The notes: generated from the letters alone by a model not told the origin. A stretch of DNA of 64,000 bases from a virus (IMGVR_UViG_2836755666_000018:1-64000), one strand, 5' to 3'; shown: positions 11,098-48,581, counted from the first letter of the stretch. A program made the numbers and translations.

Positions 11098-11382
11098 TTA
11101 AGGCTTTGGGGGTACTGTTCCCCAGGTGAGATTATTCTGTTTCCCTTTTACCGTAATTTGAATGACTTCACTTGCTGGCGCACTAATCTCATTCATCTCC
11201 CAGCCTGACAGGGCCAAGATCATCGTGGCTGTCCGTTTATTGGGTAGCTCAATATAAAGCTGAACGGTTTCTCTATTTTGTGCCAAATTTAAAAATTCAG
11301 TAAAATCTTCATTTTCGGGGTCATCGATAAAACCTAGCGTCTTTTCCGGCCCTTCCGGTAAATCGGCTATATATTGTTTGTT
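11098..11382 (-). pseudogene. Major tail tube protein, 3' part (split by satellite A)
   Basis: Reads NKQYIADLPEGPEKTLGF...VIQITVKGKQN; joins in frame to 26583-26764 to give 152 aa. Confidence 0.9.
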
Positions 11383-11455
11383 TTTATTTCAAATTATTTA
11401 TATCTATTTGAATTATATATATTTATTTATATATACAGGCATAAAAATAGCTATC

Positions 11456-11479
11456 TGCAATACACATTGCAATACACAG
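11456..11479. repeat. Putative integrase arm-type sites (tandem GCAATACACA), left end of satellite A
   Basis: TGCAATACACATTGCAATACACAG; the same doublet occurs at 26433, 32303 and 47423. Confidence 0.75.
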
Positions 11480-11535
11480 GTTTTAATCAGAAGAGAAATT
11501 TGTTTAAGATTATCCGGGGCGCTAATAAAAACCCG

Positions 11536-13203
11536 CTACACACCATCAAATGAAGCTAATCGTTCTTTCTGCTCATCGGTCAGGCTAAAGGTAAAGTCCT
11601 CATGCTCTATCTGCCATGTACCAAAGCTCATCAAAAAGGCTAAGGCGGGGTCAATTTTGTTAGCCGATTTTTTCTTGTTCGGTTTGATATTGGCGTTTGC
11701 ATCGGTTTCCATTACCACATTTGCGATCGCCCACGCTAAAACGGGGTCACCGTTATGGTGGATATTCTGACGATTAACAAAGACTTCTGCTGACTTGGCG
11801 ACAGGGCTTAAACGCATATAGGTTTGTGGGAAGGGTTCAACATCTAAACCTGCACCCTGTAATTGCGTTCTGAGATGAGTGGCATTCCATGTATCAAAGC
11901 CAATGAGCTTAATTTCAAACTGCTCACTGTCTTTGAGAATATCATCTCTGATACGGTCATAATCAATACAATCGCCTTTAGTGGTTCTCAGCCAGCCTGA
12001 CCGTACCCATTGATGATAGATTGCTCTATTTTTATTCGCTGGACTCTGTAATTGCGCTTCGGGGATATAGTGACGGCTCAATAGCAAGAGCGCATTTTCT
12101 TGTGGGAAGGTATAACAGACGCTAGTAATATCGTTTGTTGAGGATAAATCCATCCCTGCATAACAGGTTTGTCCCTTTAAATCCGTTTCCTTGTAGTCCC
12201 GTTGACAGGCAGCCCAAGCCCCTTCACCCATCCACGGCGTTTGACCCTGACACCAGATATTAAATCGTTTGGTTAACATCTCTGTCCATTGTGAGGGAAT
12301 TCCCCTTGCTTTTTTAATCGTATCGTTCAGGGCATGACTTTCTACAGAGACATTAAGATTAGGATTGGCTTTAACCCAGTTATGCTCATCATCAAGCTCA
12401 CCGTCTTCGTCTAGTTCATAAATCAGGGCAAAGAGTGATTCATTCTGCGCTTCACCGTCCAATATCTGACAACAATAATCATAGTGCTGTTTACAGGCTG
12501 AAATAACATTGCTCCCTGCGGTGGTAATGGCAAAAAGTAGTGCTTCAGGGCGTGCCCCCATCCCTAACTCAAGCGCGGAATAAACCGCATTATCAGGGTG
12601 TAAATGATACTCATCGACAATCGCCAGACTCGGATTAGTCCCTTCGATTGTTGCCGCCTTAGCTGCCAGAGGTTTTAGCAAACTGTTATTTTTAGGATAA
12701 ATTATTTTATGTTGCTGGATAGTCAGCCGTTTCTTTAGGCTAGGGGATAGCAAACACATCTGACGGGCATCATCAAAAACAATGCGTGCCTGGTCTCGAC
12801 TCACGGCTGCTGTATAAATATCCTGTTGACCCCCTTCCATGATTAAAAACCAGTTAGCCAGTATTGCAGCTAATGTAGACTTAGCGTTCTTTCTTGGCAC
12901 TTGGATATACGCACTACGATATTTTCTTCTTCCCGTGCTAACTTCTTTGAATCCTAAAATATTCGCTATAGCAAATTGCTGCCAAGGTTCTAATTGAATA
13001 GGCTTGCCTCGAAGATGTCCTTTGACATGGGGGCAGAGACTGGAAAAAGCGATAAACCGTGCTACCGTTGGCGTATCGAAGGTATAAACAGGATTATTGA
13101 GGTCATTAAAATAACGATTAACCGCCTGTTTTAAGCGTTTACAGGCCGGAATATCGCTATTTCTGACGCGCTCAGCGTATTGATGCCAATCGGTCAAGTT
13201 CAT
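11536..13203 (-). CDS. terL: Satellite A terminase large subunit
   Basis: L.PWQ.F, Walker A PRKNAKS, Walker B VDEYH, ITTAG, G.DLS, KIDP motifs. Confidence 0.93.
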   Translation of the reverse strand: MNLTDWHQYAERVRNSDIPACKRLKQAVNRYFNDLNNPVYTFDTPTVARFIAFSSLCPHVKGHLRGKPIQLEPWQQFAIANILGFKEVSTGRRKYRSAYIQVPRKNAKSTLAAILANWFLIMEGGQQDIYTAAVSRDQARIVFDDARQMCLLSPSLKKRLTIQQHKIIYPKNNSLLKPLAAKAATIEGTNPSLAIVDEYHLHPDNAVYSALELGMGARPEALLFAITTAGSNVISACKQHYDYCCQILDGEAQNESLFALIYELDEDGELDDEHNWVKANPNLNVSVESHALNDTIKKARGIPSQWTEMLTKRFNIWCQGQTPWMGEGAWAACQRDYKETDLKGQTCYAGMDLSSTNDITSVCYTFPQENALLLLSRHYIPEAQLQSPANKNRAIYHQWVRSGWLRTTKGDCIDYDRIRDDILKDSEQFEIKLIGFDTWNATHLRTQLQGAGLDVEPFPQTYMRLSPVAKSAEVFVNRQNIHHNGDPVLAWAIANVVMETDANANIKPNKKKSANKIDPALAFLMSFGTWQIEHEDFTFSLTDEQKERLASFDGV

Positions 13204-13537
13204 CTTCTTCTTGCATTTCTACCGGATTACGGCGACGTGATACGGGGTCAAAACCTAATAGTGAGGCCATTTTTATCATGGTTTTTTCTGCCTCGGCTTT
13301 TGCGCTTAGTGCGGGGTTCCTACTTTCGCTTCCCTGACTGTTGGCGATACTAAATCCGCGTTCTGCGAGGTCTGCAACGGCTTTTCGGTAAATGGAATAG
13401 TTGACGCAATACAGCTCAAAGCTACTCCAATCAGTGGGGTTCAGGTCGTTACGCTCTGCAACGAATTTTGCCTTAGCTTTCCATTCTGTAGTAGCAATCT
13501 CATCAAGATAGCTAGGGGCTTTGGGTGCTCTTGCCAT
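13172..13537 (-). CDS. terS: Satellite A terminase small subunit (P27 family)
   Basis: P..P.YL..IA..EW, NPAL, LGFDPVSR motifs. Confidence 0.9.
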   Translation of the reverse strand: MARAPKAPSYLDEIATTEWKAKAKFVAERNDLNPTDWSSFELYCVNYSIYRKAVADLAERGFSIANSQGSESRNPALSAKAEAEKTMIKMASLLGFDPVSRRRNPVEMQEEDELDRLASIR

Positions 13538-13564
13538 AATCTATTGTTTTCCTTATTGTTTTAT

Positions 13565-13652
13565 TTTCAAAAAAATTACTGCGCATAAAAATTGGATTGA
13601 CGTGCGGTCCCAGCGCAATAGGGGGTTGTCATATTTAACTCCCCCACCCCCT
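13565..13652 (-). other. Putative cos packaging region of satellite A
   Basis: GGGGGTGGGGGAG...GGGACCGCACG...TTTTTATGCGC between HNH and terS, the HK97/cf-PICI cos position; near-identical copy at about 34405-34495. Confidence 0.55.
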
Positions 13653-13777
13653 ACTTCCAAGGCTGATTCCTAAAACATTCCATTAGCTCACGGTCACGCT
13701 GAGTCAATCGTTTAACGTAGGATTTATTCGCGCTTGGCTTAACGCGTCGATAACCTTGGCTATGTCTAAGTAATCCC

Positions 13778-14248
13778 TTAATCAATTGATTTATCTGATA
13801 TTCGTCCATTAAGGTTATACTCGTGTATCCAGTCATTACGATGAGCAGCTTTTTCTTCCTGCTCACGGAACATGCCAGCTTTACGCTGTGCTTTAGTTAT
13901 TGGATCTTGCTGAATAATTTTGCGGTTATGACATCCCTGACACAATGATTGATGGTTATCTTGCCACCAGAACAGTACATCGCTATCTCCATCGATTGGG
14001 ATGATATGGTCAACGATTTTAGCGGGTGTATATATCCCCTGACTTTCGCACTTCACGCAAAGAGGATGCTCCTTCAAATAAATCAGACGATATTTAGCCC
14101 ATTGGCTGGAGTAGCCACGCTGGGTATGCGTTCCTCGTTGTTTTTCTACTCTGCGTCTGGCTGCTCGTTTATGCGCCTCGCACTTACCCGATTTCACTCG
14201 GGTACTACAGCCTGGCTCTGTACATCTTTTTAATGGTTGATACGGCAT
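13778..14248 (-). CDS. Satellite A HNH endonuclease (terminase cofactor)
   Basis: C..PGC, HPLCVKC, VDHIIP, N.QSLC..CHN.K. Confidence 0.9.
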   Translation of the reverse strand: MPYQPLKRCTEPGCSTRVKSGKCEAHKRAARRRVEKQRGTHTQRGYSSQWAKYRLIYLKEHPLCVKCESQGIYTPAKIVDHIIPIDGDSDVLFWWQDNHQSLCQGCHNRKIIQQDPITKAQRKAGMFREQEEKAAHRNDWIHEYNLNGRISDKSID

Positions 14249-14551
14249 TTAATACACTCCAATATCTCGATACACTGACCATAACGATTTAATCGTAAAG
14301 GGGACTTCTTTAAGCTCAACATCTGTTGCCATTTCCCGATTCTCATAGAGCAATCCGATATAGAGCAAACACCCAACCTTAATTGCTGGCGTGAATGTCA
14401 ATCCTTCATCAAACCGTTTGCCGATATGTTGTTGACAGGCTTCAAGTGCTGCTTCGGCATACGTGGTTAATAATTTATCATCCAGCGTAAAACTCTCTTC
14501 TAATCGACAATGCTGTTTGATTTCATTTAAAGGGATTTTTACATTAATCAA
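14249..14551 (-). CDS. Satellite A head-tail connector (gp6-like)
   Basis: L.EIKQHCRL..DD.LL..Y..AA, LYENRE motifs. Confidence 0.88.
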   Translation of the reverse strand: MINVKIPLNEIKQHCRLEESFTLDDKLLTTYAEAALEACQQHIGKRFDEGLTFTPAIKVGCLLYIGLLYENREMATDVELKEVPFTIKSLWSVYRDIGVY

Positions 14552-14882
14552 ATCGTCCTCCTCCCTTGCAAATCAATTCTAATCTTGATTGGCGTGCATC
14601 GGATAAAACAACGGCTATCTCAAATCGAGAACCCAGTGTATTAGCACCTTTATACACAATGGCGTTGTCAATCGTGATATCAGGACGATAACGCATCCAA
14701 ATCTTGACGATGGCTTGAGGATAGCGAGTACCAAAGGTTAATAACTCCTGACCGCGTAGCGCTTTTACTTCTGCCCAGACATCTTCAACATCTACCCAGG
14801 TTACTCGCTGGTCACCTAGATTACCGTATGTAATCTCTTGTTTCTGAATCGTCACACGATGTCTTAATCGTCCTGCTCTCAT
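14544..14882 (-). CDS. Satellite A head closure / head-tail adaptor
   Basis: MRAGRLRHRVTIQ, VWAEV, MRYRPDI motifs. Confidence 0.88.
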   Translation of the reverse strand: MRAGRLRHRVTIQKQEITYGNLGDQRVTWVDVEDVWAEVKALRGQELLTFGTRYPQAIVKIWMRYRPDITIDNAIVYKGANTLGSRFEIAVVLSDARQSRLELICKGGGRFD

Positions 14883-16099
14883 GCGTTGTCCTCCGCATGT
14901 TTCTTAACCTCAATATGCTGTTTCCACGCCTGACTAAATTCATCACCGCCATCACGAGGCGGTAAGCCTTCCCGTTCACGGGCTTCATTGGGGCACATCA
15001 CACCGGATTTAATCGCCGTTTCATAACTTAAGAAACGCTCTCTTGGGTTGGCTCTGAGTAAATCGGCGGTGTCAAATTCCACTTGGTAACGCATACCGGA
15101 TTGCGGAACATTAAGTAGTAGTGCCGATTTGATTTGCTGTTCGAAATTCGCTAACCAAGGGCGCATGGTAATGGTTAAAAACGCGCGGCTGGCTTCACTA
15201 AAATTACTGTAGGTACTGTTGGAATATTCTTGCAGAAAAATAGGGCTGACATTAAACATGCGGGCGATATCTTCTATCGTAAAACGGCGGGAAGCTAACC
15301 ATTCTGCATCCTGATTACTCATGCCTAATTTTTCATATCCCATTCCACCTTCAAGGATTGGCACTTTACCCGCATTTTTTGCCCCTCGATAACGTTCAAG
15401 CGCGTCAAGGGCTTTTTGCCCTTTGGCATCATTCAGCCACTCATTGGATTTAATAATCCCTGCTGCCATCATGCCATCTTTCATCACACTCGCGCCGTGG
15501 CGCTGTTGGGCTAGTCCTAAACCTAATGTCTCCCGACAAATCGTAATCGGTGAACGTCCCATAAACCCATCATCCGTGGCGTAACGTAAATGTAAGATTT
15601 CTTCTTGCAGACAGATACGGACTTGACCACTGTAGGGCTCGGTTATCGTATAACGGTAACGGTGCTCACTTAATCGTTCAGGTACAACCGCACTCGGCGG
15701 ATAAGGATGTAATGAAGCGGGCTGTCCGTCTTTACCCCATGTGATAAGCGCATAGGCATTACCATTGAGTAAGCAATGGCGCATTAGGGTTCGTTTAAAC
15801 TGGAAAGGTGTTTGACAATCATTTGGTTTTTCATTGAGCAAATAATCTACCACGTGGTTACTTAGCCATTCCCGTGATTCCATACCTTTATCATTGTGTA
15901 CCCGATATAAAAAACAGGGCATCGTCGCCACCGCTTCACTAATCACCGTAACGGCATTGATAACAGCGGGTAAGCCTTCTGCGGTGATCGGTGAGACATA
16001 TTCGCCTGACCGACTGTTAGGAATGCCAGCCAGTGACAGGAACTCATCAATACTAAAGCTGCGTTCTTCTGCCTTTTTATGTCTGAATGGCCACATCAT
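14879..16099 (-). CDS. Satellite A portal protein (HK97 family)
   Basis: LLNGNAY, EILH, G.SPI, ILEGG, IARMFNV, PNEAREREGLPP motifs. Confidence 0.92.
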   Translation of the reverse strand: MMWPFRHKKAEERSFSIDEFLSLAGIPNSRSGEYVSPITAEGLPAVINAVTVISEAVATMPCFLYRVHNDKGMESREWLSNHVVDYLLNEKPNDCQTPFQFKRTLMRHCLLNGNAYALITWGKDGQPASLHPYPPSAVVPERLSEHRYRYTITEPYSGQVRICLQEEILHLRYATDDGFMGRSPITICRETLGLGLAQQRHGASVMKDGMMAAGIIKSNEWLNDAKGQKALDALERYRGAKNAGKVPILEGGMGYEKLGMSNQDAEWLASRRFTIEDIARMFNVSPIFLQEYSNSTYSNFSEASRAFLTITMRPWLANFEQQIKSALLLNVPQSGMRYQVEFDTADLLRANPRERFLSYETAIKSGVMCPNEAREREGLPPRDGGDEFSQAWKQHIEVKKHAEDNA

Positions 16100-16650
16100 T
16101 CCACCTCGGATAATTGGAGCCACCGATGATGTAAATACGTGGGTTTGGAGCGATTAACATTGAGTGAACGCTTGGCAATTTCGACACCACTTTCAGGGTA
16201 AGCGGGTAAACTGGTGATCGTAATTTCGAGCAATTCAGCCTCAATAACCGTTCTAAGATAAGGCTTTTCGCCAATTTCCCAATGGTCTTTTATCGTCCTA
16301 AACGCAAAGCTCATGCCGGAGATATCCCCCCGTTCAACCAGTGTCAGAACATCTCGGCCTAATTGCGTATCAGGCGGGGTAAGCGCAAACCGTAACCCCG
16401 TTTCATCTTCAGCCAGTTGTAACGTACTCGACGCGGTACGCCCTAACAGGTTGGTCACGTCATGTTCAAACAGACACCTTACATCTGTCTCTTTTCCCAG
16501 ACTGTTTTTAAACGCATACGGGGCGAAGGTTTCAATAAATTCACCCCATAACAGTTGTGAGCGGCTATTCCACTTAACCGCATAGCCTGTTAGCTTTTTT
16601 TCATCAGCAGACAGGCTTGCCGTACGTATTTCAAAATCGGTTGATTTCAT
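16096..16650 (-). CDS. Satellite A prohead protease (HK97 family)
   Basis: L.GYAVKW, FEHD..LLGRT, GMSFAF, EITITSLPAYP motifs. Confidence 0.92.
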   Translation of the reverse strand: MKSTDFEIRTASLSADEKKLTGYAVKWNSRSQLLWGEFIETFAPYAFKNSLGKETDVRCLFEHDVTNLLGRTASSTLQLAEDETGLRFALTPPDTQLGRDVLTLVERGDISGMSFAFRTIKDHWEIGEKPYLRTVIEAELLEITITSLPAYPESGVEIAKRSLNVNRSKPTYLHHRWLQLSEVE

Positions 16651-16655
16651 GGATA

Positions 16656-17810
16656 TTAGCCTCCGGCTCCTTTCGCCTTGACCTCAAGCACTTTAATTGC
16701 ATTGGAATCGACTAATCCACCGCCTAGATATTTATCAGTATGGATCTTGATAAAGCCAGGCTCAGTAATATTGTCAGGCCGTGTACGTGTGCCCGTCTGA
16801 TGGTCAACAATGGTGTAACCGCGTTTAAAGTCACCGAGGGCTATCACATCATCATTCATAAATTCAAGGTAATGAACCGATAAACCCAACAGACTATCAG
16901 GATCACCCACTTGTAACCGTTCACGCCAGATATAATCACCATTGCCATTTTTCAATTTTTGTACTTTGGCAGCCGTGTTTGAGTTCATCACCCAGACGGC
17001 ATTTTTACGGTATTTATTTTTTAGCGTGAATTTCAGGTCAATCAGACTATCCGCTTCCAGCTTGGTCACTTCCTGCTTTTGCAATGTGCCAAAGCTGCGG
17101 TCTTTATCTGCTTTCGTATCACGGGGATAGGATAGAAATCCTTTTGCTTTTTTTGTGCCGTTACCACTGACTAAATCGGTTTCTTCGGTATCAACAAAGG
17201 TGTCAGCAATTTCACGGGTCAACCAGCCTAAAATATCGACATCACTAAAATCGAGGATTTCCTGAGTGGTTTTAGGATAGGCATAGACAGGAAATAACTT
17301 GATACTGACTTCTTCCAGTTTAGGGGTAGCGGTTTCGGTGCGGGCTTTGCCTTCTTCACCGTGATTGATCACGGCACCACCAACAGACACCAGTTGCTTA
17401 TATTCGTTGCTGTGAGTGGTCTTGATAGTACAGATTTTACGCATGACGGACTCATCACTGAGACGTTGCATAATCTGTTTATTTAGTTCAGGAATAACGG
17501 TATAGCCACCATCAGCCGGAACCCCAGTCGAAAGTCCGCGCGTTTCCCCTGTCAAAACATAATGCCTTAATGCATCATTTCCCTGTTCTTTTTGTACAGG
17601 CTTTGCCGCTAATGTTCTTTCTTCATCAGCAAGGCTTTCATAACGGGCAATTTCAGTATTAAGGGTTTCCGACTGATGACGCAACGCATCAAAGTTTTTA
17701 GCTTCATCTTCGGTCAGTGTTCGTTTTTCGGTTTCTGCTAAGGTCAGCATTGATCGCATTTGTGCCGTTAAATCGGCTTTTTGCTGACGTAATTCAAGTA
17801 GTCTTTTCAA
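16656..17810 (-). CDS. Satellite A major capsid protein (HK97 fold)
   Basis: Coiled-coil delta domain, DGGYTVIP, G.G...KG, W.MN, GDF..GY; probable TTG start at 17810 after a GGAG RBS. Confidence 0.93.
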   Translation of the reverse strand: MKRLLELRQQKADLTAQMRSMLTLAETEKRTLTEDEAKNFDALRHQSETLNTEIARYESLADEERTLAAKPVQKEQGNDALRHYVLTGETRGLSTGVPADGGYTVIPELNKQIMQRLSDESVMRKICTIKTTHSNEYKQLVSVGGAVINHGEEGKARTETATPKLEEVSIKLFPVYAYPKTTQEILDFSDVDILGWLTREIADTFVDTEETDLVSGNGTKKAKGFLSYPRDTKADKDRSFGTLQKQEVTKLEADSLIDLKFTLKNKYRKNAVWVMNSNTAAKVQKLKNGNGDYIWRERLQVGDPDSLLGLSVHYLEFMNDDVIALGDFKRGYTIVDHQTGTRTRPDNITEPGFIKIHTDKYLGGGLVDSNAIKVLEVKAKGAGG

Positions 17811-18244
17811 GGTTGGCTCCTGCATGCAGTGATTGTCTTAACTGAACATGCAGAAAAAAAGCAGCTAAGGGAAGGTGATATAAACCTTAACCGCTTTTAG
17901 TAACCATGAATATTTCAAAATACACCTGCATGAATCAGGAACCTCAATTTAACATGATGAAAAATAACAGGAAACAACCTCACAGGAAGGCAAAAAAGAT
18001 GAGAAAACATGAGAACCAATAATTTACGCAACTTTACATTAGTTATTTATCAAATATCATCAGCTAAAAATTTAACAGATGTTCTTATCAATTTATCATT
18101 CTCCTAGGTCACTGTTGTGATGACCTCGAAATAACCCGCTAACCCTTTGATTTACTGCAAGTGGTCAAATTGACCCCTTGCTAGAATATTCAATTCATCA
18201 AGAAAATTTCTAATGACATAGTGAGTAATCTGTTATGACTATCT

Positions 18245-18754
18245 TTATTGATTTGAATTCTGAATAAAACGATGAGTCGCGTACCCTTGTGGCTCTTCTG
18301 ATGGTATTTCATCTAAATAAAAGATAGCGTTTTCATTGATATAAATATCAAAAAATTGACACCCCTCCTTACCGTAGATGAATTTTCCTGTTCTTCTCTC
18401 AAAATGGCAGCTACCGCATGCCCATAAAATATATTTGAAAAAAGGTCTATAAACTTGAGGCATTGAATACCGTGGTGGGAAGCTTTCCACAAATCTTTTG
18501 CTTTTGGCTGGTATCATTTCGGGCTGGTAGTTCCACCAAACACTAATACGTAATTCATCATAACCCAGATCAAACCAATTAATAATTGTTCGTCTGCCAG
18601 CAATAATCAATTCACGATATCCATGTCTATTTTTTGTTCTATCATCAGCTGATCGCCCGTTCAAATCAAAGTGTCCTGATTTAATAGCTTCATTTAACGC
18701 AATAACCATCAGCTTTAAAATACACACTTGCTTTTCTGTTTTTTTCATTCGCAT
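18245..18754 (-). CDS. Satellite A cargo protein of unknown function
   Basis: 169-aa AT-rich ORF between the origin and the capsid operon; absent from satellite B. Confidence 0.6.
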   Translation of the reverse strand: MRMKKTEKQVCILKLMVIALNEAIKSGHFDLNGRSADDRTKNRHGYRELIIAGRRTIINWFDLGYDELRISVWWNYQPEMIPAKSKRFVESFPPRYSMPQVYRPFFKYILWACGSCHFERRTGKFIYGKEGCQFFDIYINENAIFYLDEIPSEEPQGYATHRFIQNSNQ

Positions 18755-18865
18755 ACCTATTATTTATTCATGCTTGGTCACCGTCGTCATGACCTATTTA
18801 ATTTATCCGATTTCCAAAATCAGTAAATTTATACAGTCAAAATACGCCCTAGCTGAAAAATTCCA

Positions 18866-18972
18866 AAAAACCTATACTACCTGTACAAACAGAAATAAAT
18901 ATATTTAATTTCAATAAGTTAACTATGTACAGGTAGATGAAAATACCCCTAAATACCACTAAGAACCTGTAC
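18866..18972. other. Putative origin of satellite A (ACCTGTA-type iterons)
   Basis: Several ACCTGTAC/GTACAGGT-like repeats around an AT-rich, IHF-like stretch directly downstream of the primase gene; related inverted copy at 24486-24596. Confidence 0.6.
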
Positions 18973-19097
18973 ACATTGATTGAGCCTAGGAACTAAGCAC
19001 CGCGTTAGAGTAGATAACATCGATTTAAAATTTAATTATCGCTCTCCTTGGACAAGGAAGGTAACCCGGAAATTTTATTTTTAGGGGATCTTAGCTT

Positions 19098-21326: not shown

Positions 21327-21673
21327 GATTTATCCTCCTGAGCAGCAGCGCTATCCGCCATGTCATTCATCATGTCAACCCACATATCAAGCCCCATCCC
21401 TGACAACTTGCCGTTCTCAACGCACAGGTCAAGTATTTGCTCAGCGACGGATTCCCAAGATTTGTATTCATCTTTCAACGGCGCTAACACATAAGTATCA
21501 ACCAGCTTCCTAATCCCTTTTACACCGTCGATAATATCAACATGAATAGCGTCATCTTCGGTGTATAAGGTAAACCAGTCTCCGCCGTATTCCTCTCTCA
21601 CATCCTGATAGATTGCCTTAGCAAATGCATTGATTCGTGCATTCAGGCGAAAGTTTAAAGTGATTAATGTCAT
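21323..21673 (-). CDS. Satellite hypothetical protein
   Basis: Coupled ORF in the operon; homologue at 41966-42317. Confidence 0.6.
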   Translation of the reverse strand: MTLITLNFRLNARINAFAKAIYQDVREEYGGDWFTLYTEDDAIHVDIIDGVKGIRKLVDTYVLAPLKDEYKSWESVAEQILDLCVENGKLSGMGLDMWVDMMNDMADSAAAQEDKS

Positions 21674-21682
21674 CTCTCCCCC

Positions 21683-23593: not shown

Positions 23594-23660
23594 AACTGTT
23601 ACCTCAGTTAACATTGTGGTTAGATGCTCTGCAAGTGTTTGCGCACTGCGGGGCATTGTC
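23588..23660 (+). ncRNA. Putative SymR-like cis-antisense RNA over the icd-like start codon
   Basis: Two hairpins (23593-23610, 23624-23656); G-U pairs form only on the + strand; TAGACT -10 at 23575; covarying copy at 44568-44640. Confidence 0.5.
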
Positions 23661-37491: not shown

Positions 37492-37495
37492 GGCG

Positions 37496-38630: not shown

Positions 38631-39079
38631 GGTTGGCTCCTGCATGCAGTGATTGTCTTGACTGAACATGCAGAAAAAAAGCAGCTAAGGGAAGGTGATA
38701 TAAACCTTAACCGCTTTTAGTAACCATGAATATTTCAAAATACACCTGCATGAATCAGGAACCTCAATTTAACATGATGAAAAATAACAGGAAACAACCT
38801 CACAGGAAGGCAAAAGATGAGAAAACATGAGAACCAATAATTTACATAACTTTACATTAATTATTTATTAAAACATTAATAAGGGTTGCACCCGTTTTAG
38901 TGAAAACATCATGAGCTATTTTGGACAATCGGTAATCACTGCCTACCAGGAAAAGAAAGAATTTTTATGATGATCCTTGTTCTCTTTCGAAAAGATAAAA
39001 TTTATTTAATAATATTTCTCATGTCAGAGAAAAAATAAAAATATTTTAGCGTGCGTTTTATATAATTAAAAAAAACTGG

Positions 39080-39539
39080 AAAACTGTTCATACTGTTCAC
39101 CAATTCAATAAAAGATATATATATCAATAAATTATGTGGTGAATAGTTTTGTGTTAAGTGTTCACCACTGTTCACCCTTTCAATAAAGTGTTCACCTTTT
39201 TATGGATTGCTTTAGTTCAGGCAATAATAGTATAACGTATTGATATATAATATATTTATTTGCAATCATTAACAATCAAAACACTTTTATTAAATATTAA
39301 TAAACACTTCCATCTTTTATTTTTCTTACAAGATTAAAAAATTATTTTATTAACCAACTTAAATAAATATTAATTTTATTTATAAATAAATTGAAGTTAG
39401 AAAACTTTTGTTCATTACCCCTCCCATAAAAGGTGAACAGTGGTGAACACTTGGTGAATAGTTTTAAGTTAAGTGTTCACCCTTTAATTTATTGATATAT
39501 ATATCTTTTATTGAATTGGTGAACAGTATGAACAGTTTT
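39080..39539. other. P4-type origin of satellite B (TGTTCACC iterons, 55-bp inverted repeat)
   Basis: Eight TGTTCACC/GGTGAACA octamers (39094, 39159, 39169, 39189, 39432, 39442, 39474, 39518); perfect IR 39080-39134 / 39485-39539 around an AT-rich core. Confidence 0.8.
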
Positions 39540-39704
39540 TACCAAAAAGTTTTATACGCATCTATTTTTTGTCTAACGCGACTTAAATAAAAAATTCTTT
39601 CCTTTCCCTGGTAGGCAGATAAAAAAGCCAGCCTTTTACTGGCTGGCGTTGTTTGTTTAGTATTGGCTGATGCTGGTTTGATATTACGGTGTCTATAATT
39701 TATG

Positions 39705-41969
39705 TTAAGGTACACTTGGCAACCAATCTTCGGCCTCCACTTCATTTAATTCCAGATTTGTTCTATATCCATGTTTTGTTCTTTCTCTAATATACCTTTT
39801 ACCCAGTTCTTTAAGCGCATTATTAATCGAGCGTCCAAAGGCGGTTAAACTCAAGGCGTTTTTATTACCGTTCCCTTGCATATAAGCCGTGTAAGCATGG
39901 TATAAATATTTCCTTGGCACTGGCGGGTAAATATTGGCGTTCCCCATCATCATACCGCTAGCAGCTTCTAATGTAATGAGATAGGCGCAAAAATCGATGA
40001 GGGGTCACTTTCCCGTTTGATTTCTATCGCTTCCCCTGATCCCCTTTGTTCAAGTAATAACGCTTTTGCGTCTTCTGGATCATCAAAGTTGCCAACAATC
40101 GACGTACAATGACAGCGATCTCACTTGAAATCTTTTCCGCTAACCTAGAATCTTTATCTTCGTCTTTTACCTTGTTATTGAACTGGAATATCACTCGCCT
40201 ACGGGCTACACCGTCTGCACGTTCAGTGAATATCATAGGGGTATTATTTGTTGCAATAACAACGGCTCTTATTACAGTGCTATACTGATGTTCATATTTA
40301 GGGTCAATTTCAATTAAATCACCGCCTGTTATGGCTTTTGCTCCCGTGGCTTCTCCTATGTACTTCGGTTGATCGGGGATGGTGATCAATCGTTTACTAA
40401 CGAATTGTGCTCGCCCTCTCGCGGTATCTAAAGCGGCCATATTGCTACTTCCGGTATTATCTTCACCTACGAGTAAAGTGGCTATTTGGGCAAAACACTT
40501 TACCGCTTCCGCCTATTCCTGTAATTTCTAAAACAGTTCCCAGTCATAGCGGTTAGCTAAAATCATATATAACCCTGCAAAATCCGTTTCATTTTATACG
40601 GGTCACGATTAGCAGCATGATCTAACCATTTATGAAAATGTGGGCATGATCCGTAAATTTTCATCGGGTGGGGCGGGTCTATATTCAATCCCATTGTGAT
40701 TTAATAACCAGTTATCGGGCTGGTGTGGTGAAAATACTTTAGTTTTAATATTAAAGACACCATTAGCAAAAGGAATAACATCGTTACAAGGCTTACCCAA
40801 CTTAGGGACAATAATTTTCAATGCCTCCACCGCATTATTAACCGCTCGGTTGCTAAAGTTGGTGTTATGTTGACAATAGATATTGCCCATTTCACGAGCC
40901 AGATCAAGGTGGGAAATTTTTTCCCATATCCCTGATACGTAGCGATAAAATACCTTACTATCACTGTGTACAGCGATCCCCTCATAACGTTCAGCCAGCA
41001 ACAAGGCTTTTTCATTGTCTGCCATTTGAGAAAGATTGTTACCCGTCTTTTGCTTGTCAGGCTCAACTTGATACGCCCCCTCTATAAACGCCTGTTTTGC
41101 TGCCTCAATCCCATGTTGCTGACGGTAATCATCCCAATCAGCTTTTCTTTGGTTGGCGGTATGGTGACCCAACCATTAACCACTTTTGCGGTTTTCTCCG
41201 CTTTAATCTTGCCAATATTGGCTTCATCGGGCTTAACATCATTATCCGCCGCAATAATGATTTTGATTGAGGTAATGCTTCCTGACCCATGTAGCAACGG
41301 GTAATAAATTACCTTCATCAAGCGCTGCCAGTACCACGCCTTCATGCAACTGGCTCACGGTTAAAGCGGTTGCATATCCTTCGGCAATTAACACCGTATC
41401 GGGCGTTCCAGTGAAATCAACGACGGGAATATAGCCACCTTTTTTCTTTGTGCCTGAGATAAAGCGCTTTTCACCGTTAGCTCTGATAATCTGAGCACCC
41501 AGTAATTTATCACCCTGTTTTACGGGTAATATCATCGAGCCATCTTTTAATAGCTTAACTGAACAGGTATGACCTTTGAGTATTAAGTACTGAGATTGAC
41601 CTAATGTGGCTTCTTCTAATAACTTTGCGGATTTTTTAATAGCATCCGTTAAAGGCGGTTTATCTGATATAGTCGTTTCTTTTTTGGACAGGTATTGAAA
41701 TAACCTTAGCCACTTCCTTAGCCGCTTCCGTGACATCAACATTAAATAACCGTCTCACTAAATCCAGTCCGTCACCACTACCACACTGATTACAGATAAA
41801 TGTGCCGTTACCTTCCTTATCATCAAAGCGAAAGCGGTCTTTACCCCCACAAGCTGGACAAGCGGTATGACGATTCAAGGGGACTTCTGCCCCCCAGTGA
41901 TGCTAATATACCTTGCCAACGTCCTGTGGCCTGCTGCTTAACCTGACGGATTAAATCAATATTTCTCAT
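39705..41969 (-). pseudogene. Satellite B P4 gp-alpha-like primase-helicase (frameshifted as assembled)
   Basis: Same N-terminal primase as A; D5-type region (IPFANGV, KAITGGD.IEIDPKY, TNN, RRRVIF) and P4 origin-binding domain (RKYLYHAY.AYM..NG..N.LSLTAFG..TNL.L..DWLP). Confidence 0.88.
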
Positions 41970-43405
41970 GATTTATCCTCCTGAGCAGCAGCGCTATCCG
42001 CCATGTCATTCATCATGTCAACCCACATATCAAGCCCCATCCCTGACAACTTGCCGTTCTCAACGCACAGGTCAAGTATTTGTTCAGCGACAGATTCCCA
42101 AGATTTGTATTCATCTTTCAACGGTTTTAATGCATAAGTATCAACCAGCTTCCGAATCCCTTTTACGCCGTCGATAATATCAACATGAATAGCGTCATCT
42201 TCGGTGTATAAGGTAAACCAGTCTCCGCCGTTTTCTGCTCTTACATCCTGATAGATTGCCTTAGCAAAAAGCGTTAGCCCGTGCATTCAGGCGAAAGTTT
42301 AAAGTGATTAATGTCATCTTTCCCCCTTAATGCACCACAGCAACGGGCTGAACATTGCCGTTAAGCACATCATCGATAAATAGGTTATGGAGTTGGGCTA
42401 AAATTTCTTGCCCCATAAAGGAAAGTTTTAAACACTTAGCATTACTGACTTCTAGCATGTTTCGATAAAACGTCAGAATATATTGCTCTGCGTCTTCCTT
42501 GGTCTCCCTAGAATAAAAAGCGCCTTCAATATTATTCTCCATGCCCATGCGTTCAGTCGCCAGAAAAATAGGAAGGTGATAGTTTTTATGGGTGTAGTAA
42601 GGCTGACCATTTTTAACGTTGCATTGCATAACGAAAATAGCCGAAATAACACAGCGTACGGACGTGATCACATCGGCTTTGTTAAAATCGTCTTTTTTTC
42701 CAGTATTCATCGATTAATTTCAGGATTAACTTAGGGTCATCATCCCAATGACCCTCATTAACACGATTAGGGATATCCGCCACAGGAATCGTTATTTTTC
42801 AATATGCCCCTGTTCGTTTAAATGTGTAAGGCATACATTTTGCCAATGGTTTTATTTTATAGCTCATCTTGACCCCTTCCTTTTTTTAGCCTGTTTGCGC
42901 TTACACTTTTCGACTTAGTGCCTGTGTGCTTTGAGCCACTGACATAAGTGTTAATCCCAGGATTTCTTATAAATTGGGGCTTCACTTTTCCCTTAAGAAA
43001 AGCCCGTGTATTCTTAGCGTTAAAGGTATTATCCCGCCCTGAGTTATAGCCATCGCTAAAAGTAATTAATGGTTGTTCGTCATATTGTGTCATGTTCATC
43101 TCACGCCCTCCGATACAGGGAATCCTTCACGCTGATAGAGTGTGAACTGGGCGTTTTCTGCGTTGATAATGAGTGCCTGAGCAATTTTAGGTAAGCACAT
43201 CAACGCCTCACTCATCCGGCATAAATCCGCTTTCGCCTGACTATCGGCATAGTTTTCATTGCTACATGCCCAATATGCGCATTCACCAAAGGCTTTTAGC
43301 CCTGACATAATCCCATCAAACCCTGCCTCACAAGCACCTTTCATTTCTCTTAGATCTTTAGTGCTCATCGCCTGTAAATTATCCGCTATGAGGTAATGCT
43401 GAATA

Positions 43406-44005
43406 TCAGCCATGATGTACCCCCTTGGTGAAATCACCTAAATCACAGATAGACAGTTGGGAAAGTTCAATAACGGTTTTGATGGCTGGACGAAGGCGCT
43501 TAAGCTCTCTACGGCGTAGGGTCATCGCTGCACTGCCTGGCTTACCATGACCAAGATAAGAGTCCTTCTCTGCCTTAACGACAAGATGTTGCGCTTCCTC
43601 CGGTTTCATCTGGCTTAACTCTTCAAGCGAAGGAATATCAACATGACGGAGTTCACCTAAGGTGTTACGGCGGAAATAAACATTGACTAGCTCTTTTTGT
43701 ATTTTCCAAGAAAGCTCATCACGAAATGACTTAACGATTAACAAATAACCTGATTCAGTTAGAACCGTTAGCCCCCTGTTTGGCACAGAAATTCCTAAAG
43801 TATCTAATTGATACTTTAGAGATACTGGAATCGATAAATAATCTTCCTCATAGACAAAATGTTCTCTATGGCGGTTAAATGCGACTCGTGTAGTTCCTTT
43901 AGGGCGATCATGTGCCTTATCAATCATGGCAAAAGTAACAACACGCTTACCTTGGTACTCCACAACAGGCATCGCCCGATTATGGATAGCGACAAAATTA
44001 GACAT
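43406..44005 (-). CDS. Satellite B ORF6N-domain protein
   Basis: Paralogue of 22765-23367 with a divergent centre. Confidence 0.8.
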   Translation of the reverse strand: MSNFVAIHNRAMPVVEYQGKRVVTFAMIDKAHDRPKGTTRVAFNRHREHFVYEEDYLSIPVSLKYQLDTLGISVPNRGLTVLTESGYLLIVKSFRDELSWKIQKELVNVYFRRNTLGELRHVDIPSLEELSQMKPEEAQHLVVKAEKDSYLGHGKPGSAAMTLRRRELKRLRPAIKTVIELSQLSICDLGDFTKGVHHG

Positions 44006-44201
44006 GTTGTCCCTCCTTACCCATGTCTAGCATGGTCACGAGGGTATTAGCCCTTTCAGACGCCAAAAACACTAAATCAGATAGATAAAAGGCTAGGCTA
44101 TTATCCTTTTCTACTGCTATCTGATTGATACAATTAAGCAAAGATGCCGTTATGGTTGCATAGTGAAGAAGATTGTCATTATTGACATAAGCGCTATTCA
44201 T
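43998..44201 (-). CDS. Small hypothetical protein (satellite B only)
   Basis: Coupled 67-aa ORF, absent from A. Confidence 0.5.
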   Translation of the reverse strand: MNSAYVNNDNLLHYATITASLLNCINQIAVEKDNSLAFYLSDLVFLASERANTLVTMLDMGKEGQHV

Positions 44202-44386
44202 AATGTCACCTCCTCTAAATCCTGACGAGATTTAGCCAAGTCCCTGGCATATTCGAGTAGGGCGAAAGCAATGTCTTGTGACTTCGGATCGCTAAATAAA
44301 TATTCCATCGTCTCAAGCAATGTCGCTATGACATTTAATTTGTCTTGAGGGTGAATATAAGCCGCTGGAAGTGAGCTATTACACAT
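44198..44386 (-). CDS. Small hypothetical protein (satellite B only)
   Basis: ATG at 44386 after a GGAGG RBS; absent from A. Confidence 0.5.
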   Translation of the reverse strand: MCNSSLPAAYIHPQDKLNVIATLLETMEYLFSDPKSQDIAFALLEYARDLAKSRQDLEEVTL

Positions 44387-44573
44387 AAGCCACCTCCTGT
44401 ACAGGCTTAAGGCCTGACAAGACAAGCCGATCACCTTTGACCAGCACATGAAATAATCTGCGCTCACGACGGGTTAATGACACTTTGCCGTAGGGAATGT
44501 TGGAATCTAGAGGGATAATCCAGTAAGTATCTGTAAAATTAGGGCGAGTTTAGGTAGACTTATACGAAGCCAT
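44379..44573 (-). pseudogene. Satellite B icd-like gene with a nonsense codon at position 8
   Basis: Homologous to 23360-23593; CAA in A is TAA here. Confidence 0.6.
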
Positions 44574-44703
44574 AACTGTTACTCCAGTTATCGTTGTGGT
44601 TAGGCGCCCTGCTAGTGTGGTACGACTGTAGGGCGTTGTCTTTTATACAATGCCATAGTCACTTGTAGTTACAAATAAACACAGTATAATAGGAGTAAAC
44701 CAA

Positions 44704-44885
44704 GTGTCAATACAGGAAAAGGATAAACGAAATAACGCAGTTTTCTAATTTCGAGTTGAACCGCCACTTGGAGCTGCTAAGGAATAAAACAGCATTATTA
44801 GAAGACGGCGATGCTTCTGTTTCAGGATGGATGAAACGCATTATCCGTAAAGAACTAGACAAAAGAGGCATCCCCTAAAGGCTGA
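44704..44885 (+). pseudogene. Satellite B ribbon-helix-helix regulator (disrupted as assembled)
   Basis: GTG start; EDGDASVSGWMKRIIRKELDKRGIP is homologous to 23727-23903; internal stop and frameshift. Confidence 0.6.
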
Positions 44886-45615
44886 AATCGCTTAGATACA
44901 TATTCCGCTGATTGCTTCTGAGCCAATCCAGCCAACCCAACCAACCCGATATTATCGGGTAGCCTCATCATCAGAGAAAAATTTCCTTGATGTTCTGAGT
45001 GACCATGAGCCACTCGCTTTGTTTGTTTATTAACCGTTCCTCTTAATGATGAATGGTTATTTTTTGCACTACTCAAATTTGAGTAGATGAGGTATTTTAA
45101 GCTGCGGTTAGATGGTTGTTTTGTATACTGCACAAATTGAATCAACCTATTGTTTTTAATGCTTTCTTTTGTTCGCACCTCTCTAATGGCTTGTACACCC
45201 ATGTTGTTTAATTTCTGAACTACACTTTTTGTGTAGTGACCTACACTTTTTTTGTAGGTCGACTTGTTCAGGCGATTAAATATATCGCCCCCCTGATTTT
45301 TGGCATAAAGAAGCCCTTCACGGTTATTCACCGTGTTTTGAATGTTCATATTGAACCTTATTTAATTAATTGAGCGGTGAGTCATGCTGCTTGGTCAGAA
45401 AAAGGGGACTTTCGGTAATCACTGCCTGCCAGGGAAAGGAAAGAATTTTTTTAATCTACTTCCTCTTTAAGTTGTTACAGGTCTTTATAGGTTTTTAGAG
45501 GTATTTTATCTACCTATACCTAATTAACTAATTGATATTAAACGGATTAAATGTAATTGGTACAGGTGATACAGGTTTTTTAGGTTTTCTGCCAAAAAGG
45601 GGACTTTTCCCCTCA

Positions 45616-45900
45616 TCAGTGAGATTGACGGCTGTAAGGATTATTCACGTTCTTCACCTCTGGCGGATTGCGTGCCCACCATAGAACATCGCTTAATAGC
45701 CATGAGACGGAGTTCTTTCCCATAGGTATACGCTTAGGAAATTTTCCTTCTTCCTCTAACACCCATCGACGGGAACGGGATAAACCAGATATCTGCTTAC
45801 ATTCGGCTTCCCTGATTCGGCGATCATACTTTTGACCATATTCATCTAAAATAAATTGTCTTTCTTCTCTGGTAGGTTCAGTAAATTTAACCGTTATCAT
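45616..45900 (-). CDS. alpA: AlpA-family regulator
   Basis: Protein identical to 24628-24912. Confidence 0.88.
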   Translation of the reverse strand: MITVKFTEPTREERQFILDEYGQKYDRRIREAECKQISGLSRSRRWVLEEEGKFPKRIPMGKNSVSWLLSDVLWWARNPPEVKNVNNPYSRQSH

Positions 45901-45974
45901 TATTTCTTCTCCATAATAAAAAAACCCCGATTAACGGGGTTCAATTCATGACATTTAATTTTTATACGTTCTAG

Positions 45975-46199
45975 TTATTCAGGTTTCCATGTGCCTTTTA
46001 TCCAAGCCTGAACTTCGGATAATCGGTATAATCTGGTTTGTAGTCCTATATTTATTTTTAAAGGAAATCTGCCCCTTTTTTCTAAATAATATCTATGATT
46101 TCTACCTAGCGAAGTTAACCATTCACATTCTTCTTCTTTAATTAATCGGTCAATTTCATCCATATTTTCTATCTCAGCACGAGTTAATATTAGTATCAT
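45975..46199 (-). CDS. AlpA/excisionase-like protein next to the integrase
   Basis: Diverged homologue of 24985-25209. Confidence 0.8.
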   Translation of the reverse strand: MILILTRAEIENMDEIDRLIKEEECEWLTSLGRNHRYYLEKRGRFPLKINIGLQTRLYRLSEVQAWIKGTWKPE

Positions 46200-46214
46200 A
46201 AAACCATCTTCTTT

Positions 46215-47402
46215 TTATAATGCGTTTAAATAATCTACCCACCAAACAAGCGCTTCTCTTTTCCTATTCATATATTTACTTCGATTGTATATTCCCGCTA
46301 CACCAGTTAATGTGTGACCAAGTAATTGTTCAATAACATTATGTTCAAATCCGTTATCACTAAGATTTGTAGCGATTACTCTTCGCATATCATGTGGAGT
46401 CCATTTTTCTAAATGATTAAGCCTTTTCCATATTTTTATCATGCTGATACTGGCTGCACTCTGACGCATGTTAAAACCAATTACCCTCTCTCTATTACAA
46501 GTTGCTTTGTTTAATAGTGATAGCCATTGTTTAAAATTATAGGGAATGGGTCTAATAATTTCTCTACCATTTTTACTATGATGAGGGGGGACTCGCCATA
46601 TATCATTTTCTAAGTCCCATTCATCCCATGTTGATAATATTATTTCAGAAAGACGACAACCAAAGACAATAAGAAATTTTAAAATAATTCTATTTTCATA
46701 TGAGATAATATGATTATCATATTCTTTATTCACATAATGCCACAGCGCTTTTAATTCATCCTTTGTTAACACTCTCTCTCTTTTATTTGATTTTTTTCCT
46801 ACATCACTTACATCTAAATCGTCAATTTCATGGCTGATTGCATATTTTCTAACCCTACAAAATTTTAAAGCCTGTTTTGTTGTTTTTAACATTGCGCCTG
46901 CTTGTACCGGAGCAACTTTTTTTATTCTATCGAAACAGTTAACCCACATAGACAACGAACAATCATTCAATGGAATATCTCCAATATCGGAATAAATATG
47001 TTTCATGAAACAACTTTGAATATATTTTGCGCCTTTTCTTTTATCTTGAGCATAATTATTAATCCAGTATTCTAAGCTATCTTTGACTGTAACAGGTTTC
47101 AGTAAATCATCTTTGGTTATTTTGATTTGTATTCTCGGATCTTTACCCCCAGCTAACCATATTCGACAATTATCTCTCTGCTCCCTTGCGGCTTTTAAAC
47201 TTAAATCTGGGTACTTGCCTAATGTTAACCATATAGGCGCGCTCTTTCTCCCGTAAAGGCGAAAGAAAAAAACAAAACTTATCGTACCTGTTTTACTTAT
47301 TCTTATAGCTAACCCATTACCATCAGCAATAGTTTGTTGTTTTTCGCTTAATTTACCATGTAAGGATCTTAACTTTTTATCACTGAGCTTGTTGACTGCC
47401 AT
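46215..47402 (-). CDS. int: Satellite B tyrosine integrase
   Basis: Start MAVNKLS at 47402 by alignment with int A; GCRLSE, HDMRR, LGH, Y motifs. Confidence 0.95.
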   Translation of the reverse strand: MAVNKLSDKKLRSLHGKLSEKQQTIADGNGLAIRISKTGTISFVFFFRLYGRKSAPIWLTLGKYPDLSLKAAREQRDNCRIWLAGGKDPRIQIKITKDDLLKPVTVKDSLEYWINNYAQDKRKGAKYIQSCFMKHIYSDIGDIPLNDCSLSMWVNCFDRIKKVAPVQAGAMLKTTKQALKFCRVRKYAISHEIDDLDVSDVGKKSNKRERVLTKDELKALWHYVNKEYDNHIISYENRIILKFLIVFGCRLSEIILSTWDEWDLENDIWRVPPHHSKNGREIIRPIPYNFKQWLSLLNKATCNRERVIGFNMRQSAASISMIKIWKRLNHLEKWTPHDMRRVIATNLSDNGFEHNVIEQLLGHTLTGVAGIYNRSKYMNRKREALVWWVDYLNAL

Positions 47403-47422
47403 GTAGCGCCCTTTTTTCAATT

Positions 47423-47446
47423 TGCAATACACATTGCAATACACAG
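47423..47446. repeat. Putative integrase arm-type sites, right end of satellite B
   Basis: TGCAATACACATTGCAATACACAG. Confidence 0.75.
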
Positions 47447-47573
47447 AGTTGTGTAAAAACCAGAAAACACGAAAAAACACGAGAACAATAAAAAATGAAT
47501 AATCTATTTTATATCAGTATCTTACAAACAACACGAGGACGGCTAATCCATTATAATTAGCAGATATTACATT

Positions 47574-48581
47574 CTTTGTTATAAAATTCGTCCTAGCTGA
47601 AACCTGCTCCTGTGCTTTTTTTGCAAGGCGGCGCATATCATCCCATCGCTTGCAAATACCTAATCCAGGATTGGCTTTTTGCCACATCTTCTCGTCAAAC
47701 GGATCATCTTTCTTGTCTAGGGTATAAATAATGCCAAAGAAGGAATCGTCTTCAACCTGCCCCTGTAAAACCTTGATGGCATAATCGCGTAATTCGTAGC
47801 ATATGCCTTCTTTATTAAATCCAGCGGTGGTAATACCGAAGAGCAAGGATTGTAATCTTGCACCTGTTGCCGTCTCTAATACGTCCCAAACATCACGCGT
47901 TTTGTGTGCGTGCAGTTCATCGACAATACCGCAATGGATATTTAACCCGTCCAAATTATTTGCATCGCTGGATAGTGGTTCGAATTTTGAAGCGGTGACT
48001 TCTTGATAAATCGCTAATTTATTGAACTCAAAACATTGACCAAGGGTATGTTTAGCCTTCCTTATCATGTTTTTTGCATCTTCAAAGACAATGCGAGCCT
48101 GATCACGAGTCGTGGCGGCTGAATAAACCTCTGCGCCACCTTCGCCGTCTGATCCGGTCATATAAAGTGCAATACCTGAAGAAAGCGTTGATTTGGCATT
48201 CTTACGGGCAACTTCGTTATAGGCGGTACGAAAACGTCTGACCATCACGACTCGTCCACTGCCATCATTACGGATTACCCTTTCCCCCGTTTGTTCATCG
48301 ACTAAAGGGATAACAAATCCAAAAATATTGATCAGGATAAAAATATGCCAATCCATCAATTTTATAGTTTGACCGGCAAGATTACCTTTTACATGGGGCA
48401 CAAACTGATAGAAATTAAGGATATGTTGTGCGCGGGGGAAGCTAAAATAGATACCCCGTTCTTCACCATGCTCAAGGTCATTCAAAAAGCGTTGACACGC
48501 CAATCGTACATATTCACACGCGATGATATCACCCGACACAGCGCGTTGTGCATAGCTAATGCCTTCCGCTACTTTTGCCAT
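47574..48581 (-). pseudogene. terL: Helper terminase large subunit, 5' (ATPase) part, split by satellite B
   Basis: ARKNAKST, VDELHAH, ITTAG, W.KANP motifs; 336 codons up to ...ARTNFITK. Confidence 0.93.

Follow-up and report, generated by a model that had tools for sequence, protein, structure and literature searches.

Two satellite elements in the late genes of one prophage

The stretch examined here, IMGVR_UViG_2836755666_000018:1-64000 (64,000 nucleotides of viral DNA analysed over its whole length, hereafter the window), very likely represents a lambdoid prophage of Arsenophonus nasoniae, with an HK97-type head and a siphovirus tail, that harbors two capsid-forming helper-embedded phage-inducible chromosomal islands (HE-PICIs) and whose frameshifts would be assembly errors. 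Annotation with Pfam and PHROGs places all relevant genes of the late region on the minus strand, in the transcription order late antiterminator Q, lysis cassette, HNH endonuclease, small terminase subunit (TerS), N-terminal part of the large terminase subunit (TerL), element B, C-terminal part of TerL, head and neck genes, N-terminal part of the tail tube gene, element A, C-terminal part of the tube gene, and tail genes (Table 1).

Both interrupted genes can be followed across the insertions with intact homologues. For TerL, the 578-aa homologues of phages mEp235 and CharmingMan match 48581-47568 with residues 1-338 (86% identity) and 32235-31531 with residues 332-567 (73-74%; 74% for mEp235), the N-terminal part holding the Pfam TerL_ATPase domain and nuclease positions 2-64. 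For the tail tube, residues 4-63 of the 150-aa major tail protein of CharmingMan align to 26752-26573 and residues 56-147 to 11388-11113 (76% identity), and a paralogous prophage contig (L006) in the draft genome of A. nasoniae DSM 15247 carries the tube gene unsplit, in one frame and with the same neighbors. The sole exact direct repeats at the element ends are TGTTTGTT (plus strand, 11375/26583) and CTTTGTTATAAAATT (32221/47574); measured from these cores, the elements have the lengths given in Table 1 and start 20,991 bp apart. As is characteristic of HE-PICIs, each element disrupts a late gene and holds no replacement sequence for it: the homologues tile the two halves, and the core alone is shared.

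A preliminary description of this DNA had claimed that two related int-to-terL elements each split an essential helper late gene, on which homologue tiling, Pfam, and the cores agree. It had further claimed that excision restores an in-frame 152-aa tube protein and a 577-aa TerL, and indeed the frames are open to the core and the arithmetic matches (174 + 285 nt for the tube gene, 993 + 741 nt for TerL). The gene maps likewise bear out that both elements are co-oriented with the Q-driven late operon and have int at the upstream end, and the lack of uninterrupted homologues, which that description had named as grounds for abandoning its reading, was not encountered, as mEp235, CharmingMan, and L006 all give uninterrupted TerL or tube matches.

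Capsid-forming gene content of both satellites

Alqurainy et al. 2023 is reportedly the original description of capsid-forming PICIs (cf-PICIs). Each of the two satellites encodes an integrase (int), two alpA genes, an ORF6N/Bro-N gene, a primase, an HK97-type capsid protein, an S78 protease, a portal, a head completion protein, a gp6-like connector, an HNH endonuclease, TerS, and TerL, as assigned by Pfam and PHROGs in A and by Pfam and DNA alignment to A in B, where the late module (32236-38872) was identified by alignment, at 97% to that of A. The SatelliteFinder model for cf-PICIs has 11 components (int, AlpA, primase, capsid, protease, portal, adaptor, connector, HNH, TerS, and TerL; PMC10085698, de Sousa et al. 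2023), and the set is complete in A as intact ORFs (11 of 11) and in B as DNA or protein homologues (11 of 11), with five of the latter (TerL, HNH, protease, capsid, and primase) split in the record. Among the ORFs scanned in 11383-26582 and 39539-47480, no tail or lysis families were found (Pfam, and PHROGs for part). The satellite TerL is 34% identical to that of mEp235, a close relative of the helper TerL, and satellite and helper connectors share 27-33% identity, suggesting that the satellites have their own packaging specificity. From this gene content, we infer that the satellites form their own small capsids, package only their own DNA, and use helper tails.

In size (~15 kb), gene set, and lack of tail and holin genes, A and B are the same as cf-PICIs as these are described in PMC10085698 and in a preprint (10.1101/2025.02.11.637232). 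However, the cf-PICIs described there occupy chromosomal sites and meet their helper in trans, whereas A and B lie inside helper late genes. Another likeness is vB_KppS-Ant (LR881103.1; 16,548 bp, deposited as an induced prophage), whose integrase is 46% identical to that of A (IntA) and which is annotated like the satellites, with int, a transcriptional regulator, primase, major capsid, portal, head-tail connector, TerS, and TerL. Unlike A and B, it is the record of a free element, with no helper context, and has an extra gene annotated as tape measure. This record suggests that relatives are packaged as satellite-sized genomes, and vB_KppS-Ant is probably a packaged satellite rather than a phage.

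Three blastn blocks connect A and B: two of 6.6 and 2.6 kb, each at 97.1% identity, and one of 1.8 kb at 88.8%. The 97% blocks take in the modules for heads and packaging plus a portion of the replication zone, and the ~89% block is the alpA region. There is no blastn similarity between the integrase genes, or between the C-terminal halves of the primases with the adjoining accessory regions, and a stretch of the Bro zone of A (~23037-23424) has no match in B except 108 nt. IntA and the integrase of B (IntB) are only 55% identical, which fits their differing target sites. The primase zones (18054-20419 in A, 38872-41063 in B) have a common Zn-ribbon/Toprim N-terminus and unrelated C-terminal halves, with DUF5906 alone in A and D5_N, DUF5906, and Pox_D5 in B, and the accessory DNA differs too. 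Judging from the alignments, the difference in the primase C-terminus is a module swap between satellites that are otherwise 97% identical. At gathering thresholds, an Rfam search revealed no immunity RNA of the C4/isrK type in A or B and, in the helper, only a tRNA and sRNA-Xcc1.

Hallmarks shared with helper-embedded satellites

Structurally, both elements follow the HE-PICI gene order on the minus strand: int, two alpA genes, ORF6N (Bro-N type, PF10543), primase, and head/packaging genes. A doubled TGTATTGC motif lies at both ends of both elements, with seven exact half-sites in the 74-kb record and none outside these four places. The published motif (tgTGTATTGCantgTGTATTGCa; PMC10111431, section 19) is reported there as two co-oriented copies in the attP sites of HE-PICIs, absent from other PICIs, and positioned ~81 and 132 bp (each ±2) either side of the attP center. 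From the center of the identity block to the near motif edge, we measured 77.5 and 132.5 nt in A and 75 and 136 nt in B, with distance sums of 210-211 versus 213 from the figures of that paper.

Both relatives of IntA found in genome contigs (2/2; A. nasoniae DSM 15247 and Erwinia endophytica) sit within prophage late genes. In Erwinia endophytica, at a contig end (L005, 8984-11479), a lambda-type portal gene truncated at Pfam position 239 is immediately followed by an IntA-like integrase (49% identity) and alpA; by its gene arrangement, this locus represents a further helper-embedded satellite, inserted at the portal site known from the literature. In DSM 15247, a 4,650-nt contig (L004) carries a gene 100% identical to IntA and spans the left attachment site (attL) of A with 99.2% identity to the window and zero single-base indels. 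Among viral contigs, no stretch matching IntA was found by a method that detects close relatives only, and megablast of element A against a phage collection gave a sole match of 48 nt, which is chance-like.

Relation to the published double-satellite helper

The double-satellite arrangement is already known, having been published in 2023, and is confirmed here rather than new. Tommasini, Mageeney, and Williams 2023 (PMC10111431) described a helper, Ana29.79.guaB, with two HE-PICIs at the sites A:Terminase_1 and V:Phage_TTP_13, under the element names Ana29.15.A_Terminase_1_246.2 and Ana29.15.V_Phage_TTP_13_49, and Supplementary File 1 of that paper gives identity blocks of aattttataacaaag and aacaaaca, spans of 15,353 and 15,208 bp, and element starts separated by 20,991 bp. 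The cores, lengths, and spacing in the window are identical to these supplement rows, and thus the question left by the preliminary description, whether double occupancy had been reported before, is answered with yes (section 17, Fig. 5C legend, and Supplementary File 1). With Ana29.79.guaB as described, the window shares species, targets, cores, lengths, spacing, motif, co-orientation, and the int-alpA-Bro-primase-late order, with no structural difference. The double-lock helper was reported as one of 209 mapped helpers, and the supplement holds three further TerL-site HE-PICIs in other helpers of the same genome (PMC10111431); that some Arsenophonus elements are helper prophages with satellites is also reported in PMC12090721. 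Within PMC10111431, the discussion puts four Arsenophonus satellites at B:Phage_portal_2:241 and the supplement gives A_Terminase_1_246; the window sides with the supplement.

Beyond the 2023 paper, we add the capsid-forming class of both locks, a warning about artefacts, and an insertion sequence (IS) in a helper replication gene. In the text of PMC10111431 that was examined, the terms capsid-forming, cf-PICI, and cfPICI have zero occurrences, and there is no mention of the frameshifts in B and the head genes or of the IS that cuts the helper primase-helicase gene; the literature searched contained no paper using both HE-PICI and cf-PICI/cfPICI. The capsid-forming class of both locks is a link between two literatures that may be unstated in print. 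More broadly, helper-embedded satellites show a parasite of a virus controlling that virus in cis by keeping one of its essential late genes hostage, and two locks are the extreme case. Regulated gene integrity (the sporulation skin element and mutator-gene islands, both cited in PMC10111431) is similar in that a gene is restored only upon excision of the element. Unlike in those systems, the regulated genes here belong to another mobile element, and two locks stand in one operon.

Excision and helper competence

For a single HE-PICI in E. coli, the abstract of PMC10111431 reports excision of the composite, replication of the composite, and later excision of the satellite. By analogy with this model, induction would lead the composite to excise and replicate, Q-modified late transcription would enter the co-oriented satellites and raise int and alpA expression, and the two products would excise each satellite at its core, restoring the TerL or tube gene. 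Each satellite would rely on its own primase for replication and on its own terminase to fill small capsids of its own with ~15 kb of DNA, and would take tails from the helper. Helper virions would need both excisions in trans, for TerL and tube protein, and probably in cis too: with ~15 or 31 kb of satellite still on board, the helper genome would be too long for a cos-packaging head, the limit of which is ~45-50 kb. Geometrically, it is reasonable to posit, as the preliminary description did, a two-key gate, in which B could excise before A since the late transcript meets int B first, and in which B could profit by staying. We consider it unlikely that this gate is ordered so as to serve the satellites, with int and alpA of B transcribed before those of A, helper packaging possible only after both leave the same molecule, with both genes restored and the genome again of a size that cos packaging allows, tails made only after A leaves, the satellites gaining a head start, a lagging B suppressing helper virions at no satellite cost, and the IS-crippled helper acting as a tail factory.

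The helper primase-helicase gene is split by an IS21-family element that matches dozens of contig ends in the DSM 15247 draft, where an IS-free paralogue on contig C197 joins both flanks of the gene. Going by these flanks, the split is a real defect, so the helper may need replication functions from elsewhere or may not be inducible alone. A possible, if doubtful, alternative is therefore that the double insertion is real but the helper is dead and has no lytic cycle, the gate being idle and the satellites mobilised, if at all, by sibling prophages in trans. The IS, which separates phrog_256 positions 5-134 from 239-778, the IS-free paralogue in another strain, and the presence in one genome of three more helpers whose TerL site holds the same satellite (PMC10111431) speak for this alternative. 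However, a second replication set lies on the other arm, with a DUF2800 nuclease and a single-stranded DNA-binding protein in the window (Pfam) and a DNA polymerase and helicase beyond it (called by eye from ORF translations), and Q, lysis, packaging, and tail genes look usable once artefacts are discounted.

Frameshifts in element B and the helper head

Besides the five split genes of B listed above, the record has frame breaks in the helper head genes, whereas A and the tail genes are intact. Against phiP27 proteins, the helper portal has one frame break and the capsid three; the protease match over 29473-30093 stays in a single frame, although the longest protease ORF listed is only 100 aa. 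Indels between A and B are single-base in 24 of 29 cases, nearly all in homopolymers, with B lacking the base at 21 of the 29. We compared the window over 28001-48000, a 20-kb stretch outside which the two junctions of A lie, with contigs of four short-read runs from four studies, in which there were 61 indel places, 12 of them listed, mostly as single bases that homopolymers of the record lack. At 10 of the 12 listed sites, every run covering the site had one extra base, and these 10 sites, in the helper capsid, protease, and portal and in B TerL (Table 1), coincide exactly with frame breaks. Four X1 contigs differed from the window by 0 substitutions and 4-7 gap letters per 0.8-1.4 kb, and a DSM 15247 draft contig differed from 38753-40494 by 2 mismatches and 9 gap openings, keeping a 263-aa D5-type frame open where that of the window is broken. 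A 4-nt difference at 28834 was seen in X4 and X8 and is compatible with loose ends of X1 and X2. In the DSM 15247 draft, the helper head region was mostly without a high-identity match, with only 26500-27300 matched.

The frameshifts in B and the helper head are thus very probably uncorrected homopolymer assembly errors rather than decay, because independent contigs carry the missing bases and because gap-only differences are unlike paralogue divergence. An A. nasoniae strain assembly, as described in PMC7157526, is a PacBio/Nanopore hybrid, Illumina-polished, with >50 phage-derived regions; if the window comes from an assembly of that type, unpolished homopolymer errors in multi-copy prophage DNA would be expected. 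Genes called from this record in B and in the helper head cannot be relied on, and the apparent decay is not for biological interpretation.

Selective decay was our first reading and was dropped since independent contigs carry the missing bases. Under it, B and the helper head would be true pseudogenes and the decayed helper a tail donor for one live satellite, A, which we now regard as very unlikely. The frame breaks do cluster in B and the helper capsid, protease, and portal, with A (15 kb) and the tail genes (11 kb) clean and homopolymer counts similar across broken and clean regions; contigs cannot show that a minority variant is absent; and the organism is a host-restricted, IS-rich symbiont. 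Nevertheless, all four X1 pieces over B and the head differ by gaps only, the ratio of mismatches to gap openings in DSM 15247 fits base-calling error and not paralogue divergence, and the errors are mostly deletions within single-base runs. The clustering itself would be explained by multi-copy satellite and helper DNA, on which short-read polishing would fail in B and not in the more distinct A.

Several points weigh against our account of a doubly occupied prophage with frameshifts born of assembly. One break in the capsid gene, in a T10 run near 28747, is mended among the sites listed only by run X8, whose contig is a diverged copy; contigs drop minority variants, and real frameshifts in B or the helper head could be hidden by intact sibling copies, which we hold to be very unlikely. 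An IS interrupts the helper primase-helicase gene, and the helper alone may be unable to replicate. Excision products were not observed, and none of the contig joints over 28001-48000 passes over B; in X1 and X2, 15 loose letters run from the C-terminal part of TerL across the core into the N-terminal part, below the 31-letter bridging rule and possibly from a paralogue, which hints weakly that these DNA preparations also contain an empty TerL site.

That A and B sit in different, similar prophage copies, misassembled into a chimeric helper, is extremely improbable: although the genome is extremely repeat-rich (>50 phage-derived regions, PMC7157526) and short-read contigs break at three of the four junctions, attL of A is bridged by at least 31 letters on both sides in an independent draft (L004), the genes in the 5.6 kb between the elements run from head to neck in an ordinary, contiguous order, PMC7157526 reports that single long reads over both flanks confirmed 26 of the 27 chromosomal phage regions of its assembly and that tiled long reads confirmed all, and the double arrangement had been mapped by inspection in independent work (PMC10111431).

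Beyond the window, at 65480-67544 and 69413-70298, a phage DNA polymerase gene (332-aa + 382-aa ORFs) and a DprA-like gene (186-aa + 122-aa) are split, as called by eye, and both may likewise owe their breaks to the homopolymer artefact. This region also holds an IS3-type element (67633-68792).

Other features of the satellites and helper

Table 1 Features of the window, with positions counted from its first letter.
Feature	Position	Strand	Details
Helper late antiterminator Q	52485..52916	-	Pfam Phage_antitermQ, E 5.5e-41; upstream of late operon
Helper lysis cassette (holin, lysozyme, Rz)	50527..51657	-	Pfam Phage_holin_2_3, Phage_lysozyme, Phage_lysis
Helper HNH endonuclease	49173-49532	-	Pfam HNH
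Helper TerS	48581-49057	-	Pfam Terminase_4
Helper TerL, N-terminal part	47589..48581	-	ORF 47514-48581 continues into element B; ~331 codons
attL core of B	47574..47588	-	AATTTTATAACAAAG on minus strand; 15-nt exact repeat
Element B, capsid-forming HE-PICI in TerL	32236..47573	-	15,353 bp with one core
Doubled motif, B	47423-47445		half-sites 47423/47435
B int	46215-47402	-	
B alpA genes	45975-46199 and 45616-45900	-	
B ORF6N/Bro	43406-44005	-	
B primase pieces	39705-41878	-	
B capsid pieces	37496-38506	-	
B protease pieces	36935-37424	-	
B portal	35718-36935	-	
B head completion	35383-35721	-	
B connector	35070-35390	-	
B HNH pieces	34620-35122	-	
B TerS	34012-34377	-	
B TerL pieces	32383-34043	-	
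Extra-base sites, B TerL	33378, 33400, 33533, 33586		
Doubled motif, B	32303-32325		half-sites 32303/32315
attR (right attachment site) core of B	32221..32235	-	15-nt exact repeat
Helper TerL, C-terminal part	31495..32220	-	Pfam TerL_nuclease positions 70-283; frame open back to core
Helper head/neck genes	26782..31484	-	tblastn with phiP27 and CharmingMan proteins; Pfam
Helper small membrane protein	within 26782..31484	-	
Helper portal	30086-31308	-	
Helper protease	29473-30093	-	
Helper capsid	28266-29438	-	
Extra-base sites, helper capsid/protease/portal	29371, 29716, 29722, 29892, 29941, 30236		
Helper connector	27870-28223	-	
Helper head completion	27566-27892	-	
Helper tail terminator	27195-27491	-	
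Helper gp10-like gene	26782-27195	-	
Helper tail tube, N-terminal part	26591..26764	-	first 58 codons; Pfam Phage_TTP_13 positions 2-52
attL core of A	26583..26590	-	AACAAACA on minus strand; 8-nt exact repeat
Element A, capsid-forming HE-PICI in tail tube gene	11383..26582	-	15,208 bp with one core; frames all intact
Doubled motif, int end of A	26432-26454		exact half-site 26444 + variant half; second half-site ends in T
A int	25206-26411	-	
A alpA genes	24985-25209 and 24628-24912	-	
A ORF6N/anti-repressor-like	22765-23367	-	
A primase	19098-21326	-	
A capsid	16656-17825	-	
A protease	16096-16650	-	
A portal	14879-16123	-	
A head completion	14544-14882	-	
A connector	14249-14551	-	
A HNH	13778-14248	-	
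A TerS	13172-13537	-	
A TerL	11536-13203	-	
Doubled TGTGTATTGCA motif, terL end of A	11456..11478	-	half-sites 11456/11468
attR core of A	11375..11382	-	8-nt exact repeat
Helper tail tube, C-terminal part	11098..11374	-	Pfam Phage_TTP_13 positions 81-137; frame open back to core
Helper tail genes	1..10807	-	downstream of both satellites; Pfam; PHROGs
Helper tail assembly chaperone (TAC)	10460-10807	-	
Helper tape measure	7358-10243	-	
Helper distal tail	6755-7354	-	
Helper tail protein	6174-6755	-	
Helper Lom/Ail-like gene	5503-6039	-	
Helper DUF6950 gene	5086-5484	-	
Helper J-like tip	2381-5101	-	
Helper fibre	1-1359	-	
IS21-family element, 1.95 kb	54983..56927	+	Pfam rve, IstB_IS21; IstA 55071-56111, IstB 56038-56859
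Helper primase-helicase, N-terminal part	56889-57335		148 codons; phrog_256 positions 5-134
Helper primase-helicase, C-terminal part	53126-54988		620 codons; phrog_256 positions 239-778

Within element A, the DSM 15247 copy differs from the window in the Bro zone (23890-24650) by clustered substitutions and a 9-nt indel while int is identical, and this patch has the look of a recombination tract. Between the two alpA genes of A, a strong terminator-like hairpin (8 pairs and a T run; 24933-24953, minus strand) could limit int-alpA transcripts unless RNA polymerase is antiterminated. Scans of 10800-27600 were uninformative, with 27 promoter sites against 43.7 expected from shuffles and 15 terminators against 14.3 expected.

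The helper TerS and HNH proteins are 59-63% identical to their CharmingMan and mEp235 counterparts. Amid the helper tail genes is an outer membrane beta-barrel gene of the Lom/Ail type (Table 1), with likeness to a lambda lom-type moron. Between the tube gene and the tail assembly chaperone, a 75-aa ORF (10818-11045, minus strand) combines a collagen-like GDKGDKGEKGEPG stretch with weak similarity to the N-terminus of T4 gp9/10, an unusual location for a fibre-like fragment. Elsewhere in the window, the helper carries a tRNA-Lys (CTT) at 63223-63298 and the Rfam sRNA-Xcc1 match (77 bits) at 63812-63900.

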